64,000 bases of DNA from Alphaproteobacteria bacterium UBA1908 (GCA_002337525.1 DDGG01000003.1:5450-69449); one strand, 5' to 3'. Shown: positions 496-5,496, counted from the stretch's first letter. The notes: generated by a model from the sequence alone, not told the origin. Numbers and translations are program-made.

Positions 496-2124
496 GTGTC
501 CGTTGCCTGTCTCAAACCTGTTGATTCTTTTCCAGATCTTGCAGGAGCCTTGTACCAAGCCGGTTTTTTATCAAAGGCACAGGTAAAAGTTCTTTTAAGA
601 GAAAAATTAAAATCTGGCAGACTTCTTGAAGATCTTGTTGTTAGTTTGGGGTTTATAGATCATCGTGTTCTGGAAACGTTTTTAAGTCAAAAAGAGGGTG
701 TCACTTTTTTTGATCCTGAAAATCACTTCATTGATCCTGCTTGTTTGGCTCAACTTCCCAAAGAAATTGCCTGGAGGTATAAAGTTTTACCTCTTCACTT
801 TAAGAATGATATTCTGGTTATCGCAATGCGCGATATTCATGATGTGCTGGCCCTCGATGTGGTAAAGCGGTATTTCCCGGGTATAAAAGATTTAAAAGCG
901 ATTGCAGCACGCCCAGAAGATATTTCTCGTTTTCTTGAAGAAGGGTATGGAGCTGAAATGTCTCTTGACGGTATTTTAGATACGCCTTCTTCTGGCATTC
1001 AGAGTGTCGGAAATCAGGAAAAGAGTCCAGCCCTTCATTTCCTGGAGGCTCTGTTGAGACGTGCCGTTCGAGATCATGCTTCAGATATTCATCTTGAACC
1101 AGATCATTATTGTGTTCATGTAAGATGTCGTATTGATGGTGTTTTACGTCATACTTTTTCTTTTCATAAAGACTCCTGGTCAGAAATTTGTGTAGGAACT
1201 AAAGTGATGGCCGGCATGAACATTGCAGAATCACGTGTCCCTCAAAGTGGCCGATTTACAAAAAAACTATATGGCCGAGAAGTTGATTTTCGTGCTGCAA
1301 CGCATCCAACTCTTCACGGAGAAAATGTTGTTTTACGAGTTCTTGATAAACTTTATTCTTTAAAACCTCTGGACAAGCTGGGATTTTCTTCTTGTCAGTA
1401 TAATATCTTTAAAAAACAGCTTCAGAGCCCTGAAGGGCTTATTTTACTGACAGGACCGACGGGGTCAGGGAAAACCACAACATTATATTCCATGTTGAGT
1501 TATTTGCAGGCCACAGAGCGTAATATTATGACACTTGAAGAACCTGTTGAATATGAAGTAAGAGGCATTCGTCAAAGTGCTGTCAAAGATCTGGGGGGAA
1601 TTCGATTTGCAGACGGGATACGTTCCTTGTTGCGTCAAGACCCCGATGTAATTTTTATTGGAGAAATTCGTGATCCGGAAACAGCCTCTATGGCCTTACG
1701 GGCAGCGATGACGGGGCACCTTGTTTTATCAACATTGCATACAAAAGATGCGGTAGGGGCCTTCCAAAGGCTTCATGACTTGGGGGTTTCTCTCTCTTTA
1801 ATGGAAGGTAATCTCCTTAGTGTTGTTGCTCAGAGACTTGTGCGTTGTTTATGTCCGGATTGTGGTGAAAATACTTCTGAAAAAGGATGTGATGTCTGCC
1901 ATCAAACAGGATACAAGGGGCGCATTGCTATTGCAGAAGTACTAGAGATTACAGAGAAAATCGATGATCTGATTGGACAGGGAAAAGGGCGTCACGCACT
2001 TTTAACAGCGGCTTGTGAGGAGGGGTTTTCTGATCTTTACCAACACGGTATGCAGCGTGTTCAGTTAGGCCAAACAACCGTTGATGAAGTTCATAGAGTT
2101 TTAGGAGTGAGAAGAAGATCCTGA
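496..2124 (+). CDS. gspE: Type II secretion / type IV pilus assembly ATPase (GspE/PilB family)
   Basis: 542 aa with a GTG start. Walker A GPTGSGKTTT, a DPDVIFIGEIRD Asp box, a His box (TGHLVLSTLH), a C-terminal Cys cluster (CLCPDC...CDVC), and an N-terminal T2SSE_N-like domain. Confidence 0.9.
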   Translation: MSVACLKPVDSFPDLAGALYQAGFLSKAQVKVLLREKLKSGRLLEDLVVSLGFIDHRVLETFLSQKEGVTFFDPENHFIDPACLAQLPKEIAWRYKVLPLHFKNDILVIAMRDIHDVLALDVVKRYFPGIKDLKAIAARPEDISRFLEEGYGAEMSLDGILDTPSSGIQSVGNQEKSPALHFLEALLRRAVRDHASDIHLEPDHYCVHVRCRIDGVLRHTFSFHKDSWSEICVGTKVMAGMNIAESRVPQSGRFTKKLYGREVDFRAATHPTLHGENVVLRVLDKLYSLKPLDKLGFSSCQYNIFKKQLQSPEGLILLTGPTGSGKTTTLYSMLSYLQATERNIMTLEEPVEYEVRGIRQSAVKDLGGIRFADGIRSLLRQDPDVIFIGEIRDPETASMALRAAMTGHLVLSTLHTKDAVGAFQRLHDLGVSLSLMEGNLLSVVAQRLVRCLCPDCGENTSEKGCDVCHQTGYKGRIAIAEVLEITEKIDDLIGQGKGRHALLTAACEEGFSDLYQHGMQRVQLGQTTVDEVHRVLGVRRRS

Positions 2125-3308
2125 TGCCCTATTTCTCATATCGAGCTTTTTCAAATCAGGGTGAACGTTTTAGCGGGTATCGTTTAGCAGAAACACCAAA
2201 GATGTTGGCGAGAGATCTTTTAAAAGAGGATCTTTATCTTGTTAGCTGTCGACGATCTTTTTTTAAAAAATTATTTAAGACGCCAAAAGAAAAGGAATTC
2301 CAGGATTTTTTACGTCATATGGCAACGCTTTTAAAAGCGGGTTTTTCCCTTGGAGAATCCCTTGAATCTTATGAAGGTTCTTCTTCCTTTGAATCTATTA
2401 TCTTTTCCTTGTTACGGGATATCAAACAAGGAAAATCTTTTCCACATGCCTTTCAAAACCATTTTTCTTTAAAAGATCCGCTTATTTCTTCCTTTATGAC
2501 TGTTGCAGAAAAAAAGGGTATTTTATCACAGGGGTTTGAGCACATCATCTTGTATCTAAAGGAAAAGAATGATCTCAAGAGCAAGATCATGAACTCGCTG
2601 GGATATCCTGTGTTTTTGTTTGTTCTGGTTTTGTTATTAATCAGCTTTTTACTCACTGAAGTCGTCCCCCAACTAGATACTTTTTTGAGATCAGGCGGGT
2701 CAGAGCTTCCTCTGCAATCTCAACTTCTACTTTCTTTTTCTAATCAAATAGGTTCCTGGATAAAATTATTTTCCGGAGCAGTTTTCTTTCTTTTTCCAGT
2801 TGTTTTTCTGGTTTCATATTTTTCTGAAAAGGGGGCGCTCTTTATTGGAAAAAAGTGTCTGAAGATTCCTCTGATAGGATCTTTACTTCATAAAAGAGAG
2901 CAACTTCTATTTCTAAAAAACATATATCTTCTTCTTGAGGCGGGCGTTCTTTTGCCAGAGGCAATGGAGCTTTCTTGTTCGGGTAATTCTGCTTATTTTA
3001 AAAACGCTATAAATCAGGTGTATCAAGATGTGATAAAAGGTCACTGTTTTAGTGAAGCGCTGGCGCTTGGGAAGTGTCTTGATAGTCGTTCTCTTCGATT
3101 TATAAAGGCAGGGGAACTCTCGGGAAATATGTCCTCTTTACTGATAGATTTAACGGCGATGTTGAAAGACGAAATTGATCAAAAAATGTCACGTCTTTTA
3201 AGTTTGTTGGAGCCAGCTTCCATGGTCCTTGTAGGAGGTCTTTTATTGTGGATTGTGAGTGCTTTCTTTGTGCCCCTTTATGAACATTTAAATGAGGTTG
3301 ATTTTTAA
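2124..3308 (+). CDS. gspF: Type II secretion / type IV pilus platform protein (GspF/PilC family)
   Basis: 394 aa. Its start overlaps the gspE stop (ATGA-type coupling). Duplicated T2SSF-type cytoplasmic domains and three hydrophobic segments. Confidence 0.85.
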   Translation: MPYFSYRAFSNQGERFSGYRLAETPKMLARDLLKEDLYLVSCRRSFFKKLFKTPKEKEFQDFLRHMATLLKAGFSLGESLESYEGSSSFESIIFSLLRDIKQGKSFPHAFQNHFSLKDPLISSFMTVAEKKGILSQGFEHIILYLKEKNDLKSKIMNSLGYPVFLFVLVLLLISFLLTEVVPQLDTFLRSGGSELPLQSQLLLSFSNQIGSWIKLFSGAVFFLFPVVFLVSYFSEKGALFIGKKCLKIPLIGSLLHKREQLLFLKNIYLLLEAGVLLPEAMELSCSGNSAYFKNAINQVYQDVIKGHCFSEALALGKCLDSRSLRFIKAGELSGNMSSLLIDLTAMLKDEIDQKMSRLLSLLEPASMVLVGGLLLWIVSAFFVPLYEHLNEVDF

Positions 3309-4557: not shown

Positions 4558-5096
4558 ATTATATTCTTAAAAAACAATTTCTCTGGATTCTGTTTTGTTT
4601 GACAGCTTTTTCCCTGAATGGGATCTTCTGGAAAATAAATGATATTTTTCAAGAGGATATCTTGGTCTTGAAAAGTCGTCAAAACCAGGTTGTGAACGAT
4701 ATAAGAGAAGCATCTTTTTTCCAAAAACAAAAAAAGCACTTTGATCATCTTGCCAGAGAGATGGATCAAGAACGCTATGTGGGGTCCATGGGAACTTTCA
4801 AGGCGACAAGACAACTGATCGAAAAAGCTTTTCACCAACATAATTTGATGGGAGGAAATTTAAAATCGGAAGCAGTACAGGTTAAAGATAATGAAAAATA
4901 TCAACGATACTCTCTTTTTTTTGAAACTGCTTTGGATACAGATTTCTTCGATTTTCTAGAAACTTTTTCAAAAAAGCTAAACGGTGTCATGATTCCACGA
5001 CTCGTGACACTTTTTCGTCAGGAAAATGGGTTTTTGAAAGGTGAATTTAGTTTCTATTTGGTGACCTGTGATGCCTATAGGGTACCGGCACCATGA
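4554..5096 (+). CDS. Hypothetical bitopic membrane protein with GspM/PilO-like topology
   Basis: 180 aa with a 4-nt overlap on the upstream ORF. N-terminal TM (LWILFCLTAFSLNGIFW) followed by about 150 aa of soluble domain. Confidence 0.5.
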   Translation: MNYILKKQFLWILFCLTAFSLNGIFWKINDIFQEDILVLKSRQNQVVNDIREASFFQKQKKHFDHLAREMDQERYVGSMGTFKATRQLIEKAFHQHNLMGGNLKSEAVQVKDNEKYQRYSLFFETALDTDFFDFLETFSKKLNGVMIPRLVTLFRQENGFLKGEFSFYLVTCDAYRVPAP

Positions 5097-5496
5097 TAGT
5101 AAAAAAGGGTTTATAGTGTATCCAGGATTCATTATTTTTTTGATTGTTTGGGGGGGCATGTGGCTGCCCGAGGTGAGTGCTTTCTCTCTTTTTCATCGTC
5201 CTGAAGAAATTCAAAAAGTCCATGAGATGAGACAAAATTCCCAAAAAAACAAAGGCAGTAGTTTGATCCACTTGTCGGGGTATGTTTATGGTGGGGAATC
5301 ACTATCTTATATTTGGATTAATGGAAAAGCCTATACGCCAGAAGCCATGCCAAACCTTAAAATTCTTGCAACCAGTCCTTTTTCTGTTTCCTTTCAAGTA
5401 AATCATGAGGGAGAAAGCATTGTTTTTACGCTGGCTCCTAATCAACATTACTGTTTAGAAGAACGCAAGGTTGGATTGGGACGTTATAAACCCTGA
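5068..5496 (+). CDS. Hypothetical bitopic membrane protein, GspC-HR/PilP-like (beta-rich C-terminus)
   Basis: 142 aa, overlapping the upstream ORF by 29 nt. N-terminal TM (FIVYPGFIIFLIVWGG). The C-terminal LSGYVYGGESLSYIWINGKAYTPE...VSFQV pattern resembles small periplasmic beta-domains of PilP/GspC. Confidence 0.45.
   Translation: MMPIGYRHHDSKKGFIVYPGFIIFLIVWGGMWLPEVSAFSLFHRPEEIQKVHEMRQNSQKNKGSSLIHLSGYVYGGESLSYIWINGKAYTPEAMPNLKILATSPFSVSFQVNHEGESIVFTLAPNQHYCLEERKVGLGRYKP

Follow-up and report, generated by a model that had tools for sequence, protein, structure and literature searches.

A cluster of five open reading frames (ORFs) lies on the plus strand at positions 496-5496 of a 64,000-nucleotide stretch of DNA from Alphaproteobacteria bacterium UBA1908; this whole stretch is called the window below. 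The first two genes encode an assembly ATPase (E) and an inner-membrane platform protein (F) of the kind found in type II secretion systems (T2SS) and type IV filament machines, and three further genes, ORF3, ORF4 and ORF5, follow them directly. An earlier reading of the window, made from the sequence alone, proposed that these three correspond to the GspL, GspM and GspC proteins of a strongly diverged or minimal machine; the coordinates and lengths that it gave for the five ORFs are correct (Table 1). It also stated that ORF3, ORF4 and ORF5 carry no recognizable family motif, and this is the case. Searches of the three against Pfam and NCBIfam yield no matches at E ≤ 1, and profile searches of the PDB sequences with alignments of 3-10 members yield only chance matches (Ski7, PfEMP1, prion, homeodomain).

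The genes are tightly packed, but the extent of overlap depends on the start codons chosen. Overlaps of 17, 4 and 29 nt, as first reported, are obtained with the longest ORFs. Other gene calls, public ones included, start ORF3 at ATG 3310, giving a protein of 415 aa that is more likely than the one of 421 aa, and public gene calls start ORF5 at ATG 5071 (141 aa); with these alternative starts, 1 nt separates F from ORF3, and ORF4 overlaps ORF5 by 26 nt. Across six lineages the F-ORF3-ORF4-ORF5 junctions overlap by 1-37 nt, with the 1-nt gap of the window as the sole exception. The operon-like packing is therefore conserved, and a single operon is the best explanation for the five genes. A scan for promoters and terminators gave no signal above background.

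E matches the Pfam T2SSE family (PF00437) over residues 174-534 (E 1.9e-115) and has an N-terminal MshEN/T2SSE_N domain (Pfam MshEN, 2e-14). Its translation contains a Walker A motif (GPTGSGKTTT) and a tetracysteine zinc motif (CPDC...CDVC), the latter a feature that we take to separate assembly ATPases from PilT. The protein is 42% identical to Escherichia coli GspE over 380 aa. The NCBIfam models for GspE (TIGR02533, 435.9 bits, cut-off 630) and PilB (TIGR02538, 425.3 bits, cut-off 675) both match it, neither reaching its equivalog cut-off. F has two stretches matching Pfam T2SSF (PF00482, E 3.2e-39) and three hydrophobic segments in hydropathy plots, and the NCBIfam models for GspF (165.8 bits) and HofC (164.4 bits) are virtually tied, both under their cut-offs. 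Judged by these family matches, the predicted E-F pair belongs to the branch that comprises T2SS, type IVa pili (T4aP) and mannose-sensitive haemagglutinin (MSH) pili; the scores assign neither protein to one system.

Residues 19-65 of E (window 496-700) weakly match the MshE-type cyclic di-GMP motif NF053729 (26.6 bits, cut-off 38). By eye, the second 24-residue repeat is near the motif consensus with a shift of one residue. The window also encodes a response regulator with a GGDEF domain (59287-61125), and an EAL protein is encoded at 60-1229 of L001, a locus with DNA identical to that of the window. Control of the motor by cyclic di-GMP is possible but unproven.

ORF3 resembles GspL in its predicted structure. 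The AlphaFold2 model, built from a 10-sequence alignment, has a mean predicted local distance difference test (pLDDT) score of 75 overall and of about 90 for residues 20-210. It consists of a cytoplasmic truncated actin-like domain, a 55-residue helix that contains the single hydrophobic segment (about 237-259) and runs to about residue 287, and a small periplasmic domain followed by an acidic tail. A Foldseek search of the PDB gave 40 matches at E ≤ 1e-3, all to the actin-like superfamily. BT_3980 and Pseudomonas aeruginosa PilM (5eou, E 2.5e-7) rank first by E-value. The best geometry is that of the Vibrio GspL cytoplasmic domain (4pht_Y; target-normalized TM-score 0.50, root mean square deviation (rmsd) 4.9 Å, 185 columns), followed by Klebsiella PulL (5tkw; TM-score 0.49, rmsd 5.3 Å); the alignments with PilM, FtsA and MreB have an rmsd above 20 Å, and PilO2Bp (4bz0) is matched at E 1.2e-3. 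GspL itself is the fused counterpart of PilM plus PilN. Because the actin-like domain superposes best on GspL and PulL, and because the size of that domain (about 205 aa) and the order of domains also agree, the modelled ORF3 can be described as GspL-like in fold, architecture and size, although its sequence gives no such match: ORF3 and eight homologs give no Pfam or NCBIfam matches, GspL models included, and the hhalign probability with E. coli GspL is about 1%. Two cysteines in the predicted periplasmic part, C352 and C410 (window 4345-4520), are nearly invariant across the family, which suggests a structural periplasmic disulfide.

ORF5 and all its homologs begin with what appears on inspection to be a Sec signal peptide, with n, h and c regions and AXA-type sites such as VSA/F, ARA/Q and AEA/N (the slash marks the cleavage position). 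For this reason the hydrophobic segment is read as a signal peptide, and ORF5 is probably a soluble periplasmic protein without a transmembrane (TM) anchor. The statement that each of the three proteins has one TM segment thus holds for ORF3 and ORF4, and probably fails for ORF5. A conserved SLF[HYF] segment stands directly after the signal peptide and is followed by a short helix and by a beta-domain with the motif HLSG..Y.....W.IWINGK. The AlphaFold2 model, built from four sequences, shows seven strands at residues about 64-137 (pLDDT 83-92), and the N-terminal 60 residues are poorly modelled. The sole good, low-rmsd superposition in the PDB is on the HR periplasmic domain of Dickeya dadantii GspB/OutB (4wfw; Foldseek probability 1.00, target-normalized TM-score 0.48, rmsd 3.5 Å, 66 columns, 21% identity, E 0.04). 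This gives moderate support to the view that ORF5 is probably an HR-domain protein with the fold of GspC-HR and PilP. The HR fold is common to GspB/OutB, the GspC HR region and PilP, and in every characterized case it binds the N0 domain of a secretin (PMC9239104).

None of the eight ORF5 family members examined (8/8) matches Pfam at E ≤ 10, the T2SSC, PilP and T2SSB models included. A likeness of the HLSG..Y...WINGK motif to the T2SSB/GspB family has no support at the sequence level, but is supported by the superposition on Dickeya GspB. GspB of E. coli K-12 lacks the HR region. The ORF5 of the window aligns locally with E. coli HofO (score 56, z 7.9), but as no homolog does so, the alignment was treated as chance. 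In L003, a short contig from a relative, the ORF5 homolog P0005 ends with PGPQSVLLFAGL (positions 2700-2790); translated in a different frame, this DNA gives APNQYYSLRDYKVGVGRP, in agreement with the other homologs, which suggests a frameshift or faulty assembly.

ORF4 has one N-terminal hydrophobic segment (residues 9-25), which is present in 12/12 homologs, and the homologs share an LDTD[VF]..F motif in the C-terminal domain. A crude Chou-Fasman consensus of the 12 sequences predicts a long helix followed by alpha-beta-beta-alpha-beta-beta. The periplasmic domains of GspM and PilO are expected to have this order, a helix and then two alpha-beta-beta units. At all loci the ORF4 gene lies directly 3' of the GspL-like gene. 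ORF4 has no Pfam, NCBIfam or PDB match, and hhalign probabilities are 5% with E. coli GspM and below 6% with the C-terminal half of ORF3. The last strands of ORF4 (about 5000-5040; W.FFSLF.TPQG.VQGE) and the first mature residues of ORF5 (5180-5210; FSLFHRPEEI) share an FSLF..P sequence, a likeness strong enough to misalign rows in MAFFT repeatedly; it may be chance or a common docking element.

Structure prediction, the check that the sequence-only reading had proposed, thus returned a GspL/PilM-like fold for ORF3 and an HR-like fold for ORF5. Of its GspL/GspM/GspC trio, the first member is retained in the GspL/PilM-type fold of ORF3, and the third in the HR-type best match of ORF5; the idea of a TM-anchored GspC is probably wrong.

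Table 1. Predicted genes and protein domains of the cassette and the prepilin-like genes of the same window. Identity is the range between homologs and the window protein.
Feature	Coordinates	Strand	Length	Identity	Evidence
E, GspE/PilB-class assembly ATPase	496..2124	+	542 aa	51-66%	Pfam, NCBIfam, identity to E. coli GspE, motifs
F, GspF/PilC-class polytopic inner-membrane platform protein	2124..3308	+	394 aa	28-43%	Pfam, NCBIfam, hydropathy
ORF3, GspL-like	3292..4557	+	421 aa	27-32%	AlphaFold2 model, Foldseek, conserved columns
ORF3, cytoplasmic truncated actin-like alpha/beta domain	residues about 19-225				AlphaFold2
ORF3, small periplasmic alpha/beta domain	residues about 326-417				AlphaFold2, low confidence; acidic tail after
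ORF4, putative GspM/PilO-like partner	4554..5096	+	180 aa	24-31%	topology, position, crude Chou-Fasman consensus
ORF5, probable periplasmic HR-domain protein	5068..5496	+	142 aa	28-48%	AlphaFold2 beta-domain, Foldseek, alignments
Prepilin-like gene, G/FSLVE class III signal	49117..49929	-	~215 aa mature		Pfam N_methyl, NCBIfam TIGR02532
Prepilin-like gene 2, G/FSLLE	48386..49141	-	251 aa		Pfam N_methyl

The complete E-F-ORF3-ORF4-ORF5 order is present in the window (and in the identical DNA of L001 and L002) and at loci L004, L006/L012, L013, L009, L014 and L016. L006 and L012 are the same contig, as are L007 and L015. The L006/L012 contig is from a metagenome-assembled genome (MAG) labelled Candidatus Puniceispirillum sp. 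WM.011, L013 is from the MAG Proteobacteria bacterium CAED1, and L014 is from the MAG Alphaproteobacteria bacterium MCMED-G24. E is truncated by the contig end in L017, and L003, L005, L007 and L008 are colinear fragments. The five-gene order, whose conservation in relatives the sequence-only reading had left to be checked, is thus preserved in no fewer than six uncultured alphaproteobacterial lineages and in three unrelated genomic contexts. In the first context, that of the window, a divergent transaldolase-family gene is the 5' neighbor, and a 160-nt gap separates the cassette from an amino-acid permease gene on the 3' side, beyond which lie dapE-like and sdhCDAB genes; the permease gene is also present in L004, whose contig ends inside E. 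In the second, a chemoreceptor or cupin gene precedes the cassette and ymdB follows it (L006, L009). In the third, fabD/fabG or F-box genes are found 5', and genes for an ABC ATPase and HSP20 are found 3' (L007, L008, L014, L016).

Five ORFs that remain intact while their products are 24-66% identical speak for selection on each of them. The recurrence of one gene order in independent contigs that are only distantly related is far more than chance would give. Because the genes stay intact and in order despite such divergence and varied surroundings, the cassette is a functional unit, neither a chance neighborhood nor a remnant. The families are very small. A profile search recovered 10 ORF3 proteins among 1.84 billion representatives, and a word-indexed search of 5.8 billion clusters recovered 2 for ORF3, 4 for ORF5 and 7 for ORF4. 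A profile scan of the contigs of species-representative genomes with an alignment of the close subfamily gave no matches.

Genes missing from the cassette were sought in the 64-kb window and in about 10 kb around the cassette in relatives. With E. coli GspD, HofQ and GspO as queries, tblastn gave no matches in the window at E ≤ 1. Across the window together with every fetched locus (235 kb, duplicates counted), tblastn with E. coli GspD, HofQ, GspO, GspG-K, GspC, GspL, GspM and HofM-P picked up nothing beyond GspE, GspF and a single N-terminal match of GspG to the prepilin-like gene at 48386-49141. A Pfam scan of the larger ORFs of the window found no secretins, and the window has no PilT-type retraction ATPase, with one T2SSE-family match only. 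The prepilin genes of the window are confined to 48386-49929, as the sequence-only reading had noted, and their class III signal motifs are the sole two in the window and also across the fetched loci. The product of 48386..49141 matches the N-terminus of the NCBIfam GspG model (8.5e-5, far under the cut-off) and E. coli GspG in tblastn (1.6e-4). These two prepilin-like genes, 43 kb from the cassette, encode candidate filament subunits. Both are directly upstream of a gene for an ArnT/PMT-family GT-C glycosyltransferase (46356-47999) in a minus-strand cluster (42700-49929) that also encodes a small EamA/SMR-like protein, a DegT-family aminotransferase, a GT2 glycosyltransferase and an NAD-dependent epimerase/dehydratase. 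The cluster could serve lipid A modification of the 4-amino-4-deoxy-L-arabinose type or pilin glycosylation.

T4aP and Com systems usually have their genes spread over several loci, and PilMNOP homologs are confined to T4aP, MSH and T2SS (PMC6668835). An HR-type ORF5, together with the multi-locus layout usual for T4aP, makes multi-locus organization the simplest reading of an unlinked secretin. The description of the system as secretin-less or minimal is accordingly apt for the locus and is not carried over to the genome.

The reading that we favor, and hold to be probable, is that the cassette provides the motor, the inner-membrane assembly platform and the secretin connector for a type IV filament machine whose genes are spread over several loci. 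The folds of ORF3 and ORF5 and the conserved gene order bear out the earlier suggestion of a strongly diverged type II secretion/type IV filament module in Alphaproteobacteria. By analogy with known machines, the N-terminal domain of the hexameric ATPase would dock on the actin-like cytoplasmic domain of ORF3 at the membrane, and the ATPase would drive F, so that processed pilin-like subunits are drawn from the inner membrane and polymerized. Around the platform, the periplasmic parts of ORF3 and ORF4 would associate; GspL, for comparison, binds the N1 domain of GspE and pairs with GspM. ORF5 would be exported by the Sec pathway and released into the periplasm, where the mature protein would dock on the periplasmic domains of ORF3 and ORF4, plausibly through the SLFH segment and the helix, and its HR beta-domain would contact the N0 ring of the secretin. 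These protein contacts and the existence of the secretin are inferred from analogous systems.

Several findings weigh against this reading. In hhalign comparisons of the family profiles with single E. coli GspL, GspM, GspC, GspB and HofM, HofN, HofO and HofP sequences, all probabilities are below 6% and insignificant. The match of ORF5 to 4wfw is statistically weak (E 0.04), ORF5 has no PDB match at E < 1e-3, and SspB outranks 4wfw by E-value, yet with an rmsd of about 11 Å. ORF5 has neither the membrane anchor of GspC and GspB nor, in most homologs, the lipobox of PilP; a possible lipobox is found only in L007 and L008 (ILSC/TLSC). GspL has a ferredoxin-like periplasmic domain; the beta-beta-alpha-beta...beta region in the periplasmic part of ORF3 has block-mean pLDDT values of about 35-69 and no separate fold match. 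The putative GspM/PilO identity of ORF4 is drawn from topology, position and crude secondary structure. Finally, a secretin, a prepilin peptidase and a set of minor pseudopilins were found neither in the window nor within ~10 kb of the cassette of any relative, and the favored reading assumes that secretin, peptidase and pilins are encoded elsewhere.

The platform may instead serve a surface type IV pilus of the T4aP or MSH kind, used for adhesion or DNA uptake, with ORF3, ORF4 and ORF5 equivalent to MshI, MshJ and MshK or to a PilMN fusion, PilO and PilP. This differs from the favored reading in output alone, and we regard it as possible but less probable. The PilB model is close behind the GspE model for E (425 vs 436 bits), and the N-terminus of E has the weak match to the MshE-type motif described above. 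The combination of a fused PilM-N type with a small signal-peptide protein is reminiscent of MshI/J/K. Both pilin-like proteins are large, a GspG-K set of five genes is not seen, and a multi-locus layout is typical of T4aP (PMC6668835). Against a surface pilus, no PilT-type ATPase is encoded in the window, and three features are of T2SS type: the fusion seen in GspL, the best HR match (GspB) and the scores of E and F, which are marginally highest with the GspE and GspF models. Because of these three features, a T2SS-like secretion machine is slightly favored over a surface pilus, with a T4aP/MSH-type pilus nearly as likely.

It is doubtful that the machine works without any secretin, with the cassette, pilins and a peptidase assembling a periplasmic or other secretin-independent filament and the HR-like domain of ORF5 turned to some other envelope partner, for example peptidoglycan or an outer-membrane protein that is no secretin. 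Genes for HR proteins (pilP, gspC, mshK) normally adjoin the secretin gene, and a secretin gene adjoins the cassette in 0 of about nine independent loci, which counts in favor of this idea. So does ORF5 itself, which is unlike all known HR proteins in being, as it appears, unanchored and cleaved at a signal peptide. However, these loci are viewed over only about 10 kb on each side, and T4aP loci are commonly scattered (PMC6668835). In addition, every characterized HR domain binds a secretin N0 domain (PMC9239104), and the hosts are diderm Alphaproteobacteria with porin and BamE genes nearby. A related and slightly more doubtful proposal is that the cassette is self-contained and secretin-independent in a small, possibly protist-associated clade, or that it is a lineage-specific, strongly simplified T2SS with unrecognizable equivalents of GspL, GspM and GspC. 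Such undetectable equivalents, if real, would show how subunits escape detection. They would then be relevant to the T2SS of mitochondria, where no GspL, GspM or GspC has been found (PMC10128026).

A decayed, non-functional remnant of a former T2SS or type IV pilus locus is very improbable. Core parts are absent from the locus and the accessory proteins are extremely divergent, as decay would predict, but five intact, translationally packed ORFs persist in lineages 24-66% identical and in three contexts, the catalytic motifs of E are intact, and motifs and the cysteine pair are retained in ORF3-ORF5. Least probable of all is that ORF3-ORF5 are unrelated membrane proteins that merely stand beside gspE-gspF: they have no sequence-family match, but they are strictly colinear with E and F at every locus despite changing flanks, and the predicted folds of ORF3 and ORF5 are GspL-like and HR-like.

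The sequence-only reading also took the bacterium to be host-associated. The sole hint of this, an indirect one, is the presence of F-box/LRR genes beside the cassette of one relative. F-box and leucine-rich repeat (LRR) domains are eukaryote-like domains typical of host-associated bacteria. In the MCMED-G24 MAG (L014), F-box or F-box-like matches and weak LRR matches flank the cassette at 3916-6848 and 15717-16991. Proteins identical to those of the window occur in Tara Oceans surface water from station 018, in the gene catalogue entry '<-0.22' (fraction below 0.22 µm), an origin that suggests very small cells or free DNA. Elsewhere in the window, two large plus-strand ORFs, 23039-26191 (1050 aa) and 50491-52323 (610 aa), are without any counterpart in Pfam or NCBIfam. 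Minus-strand signaling genes are found at 40271-42544 and 53292-56823; they encode a dCache-adenylate/guanylate cyclase and, next to a response-regulator-like gene, a histidine kinase fused to an SSF symporter.

If the favored reading is correct, three families annotated as hypothetical join the GspL/PilM-N, GspM/PilO (the last assignment being inferred) and HR-domain classes. System finders based on hidden Markov models would miss this assembly platform and could take the locus for an orphan gspE-gspF pair. The cassette could show which contacts are essential in a platform-to-secretin connector. Whole genomes without a secretin would make it a much more interesting case.

The cassette resembles several known systems. 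It has the ATPase and platform families in common with the T2SS (Vibrio Eps, Klebsiella Pul, Dickeya Out). ORF3 has the architecture of GspL, the gene for a small bitopic protein comes next, as gspM does after gspL, and ORF5 probably has the HR fold of GspB and GspC. In contrast to the T2SS, its L, M and HR components have no detectable sequence similarity to their counterparts, the locus lacks gspC-D and gspG-K/O, and the compact E-F-L-M-HR order has no pseudopilin genes within it. ORF5 is also short, probably cleaved and periplasmic, and lacks the TM anchor, the PDZ domain and the C-terminal peptidoglycan-linking extension. Compared with PilB-PilC and PilMNOP of T4aP, the cassette would supply the same functions (a motor, a platform, a clamp with an actin-like fold, a pair of bitopic partners in the periplasm and a connector with an HR domain) and probably has a similarly scattered multi-locus organization; the binding of the N-terminal tail of PilP to PilN and PilO is a plausible parallel to the SLFH segment of ORF5. 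It differs in that PilM and PilN are fused in ORF3 with an actin-like domain of GspL size, that the ORF5 of most lineages is no lipoprotein, that no pilQ follows the HR gene, that neither pilD nor pilA stands beside its pilB-pilC pair, and that PilT is missing from the window.

In the MSHA pilus, MshI (a PilM/N-like fusion) is followed by MshJ, which resembles PilO, and then by the small exported protein MshK. By this description, ORF3-ORF4-ORF5 would follow the order of MshI-J-K, and E carries an MshEN-type N-terminus. MSH is, however, a single locus in which the MshL secretin comes directly after MshK, with MshM/N and pilins in addition (PMC6668835), and the cassette has none of these. Burkholderia PilO2Bp and the GspL-like proteins of type IVb systems share with ORF3 an actin-like cytoplasmic domain, a TM segment and a periplasmic part, but PilO2Bp is a weaker structural match to ORF3 than GspL and PilM are, and each type IVb system has the genes for its secretin and pilins together in one cluster. 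The cassette is unusual in its compact E-F-L-M-HR order, which stands apart from secretin and pilins, in an HR protein that is probably soluble, and in how far its proteins have diverged. The cassette is thus an unusual form of a well-known machine, and no new kind of machine.

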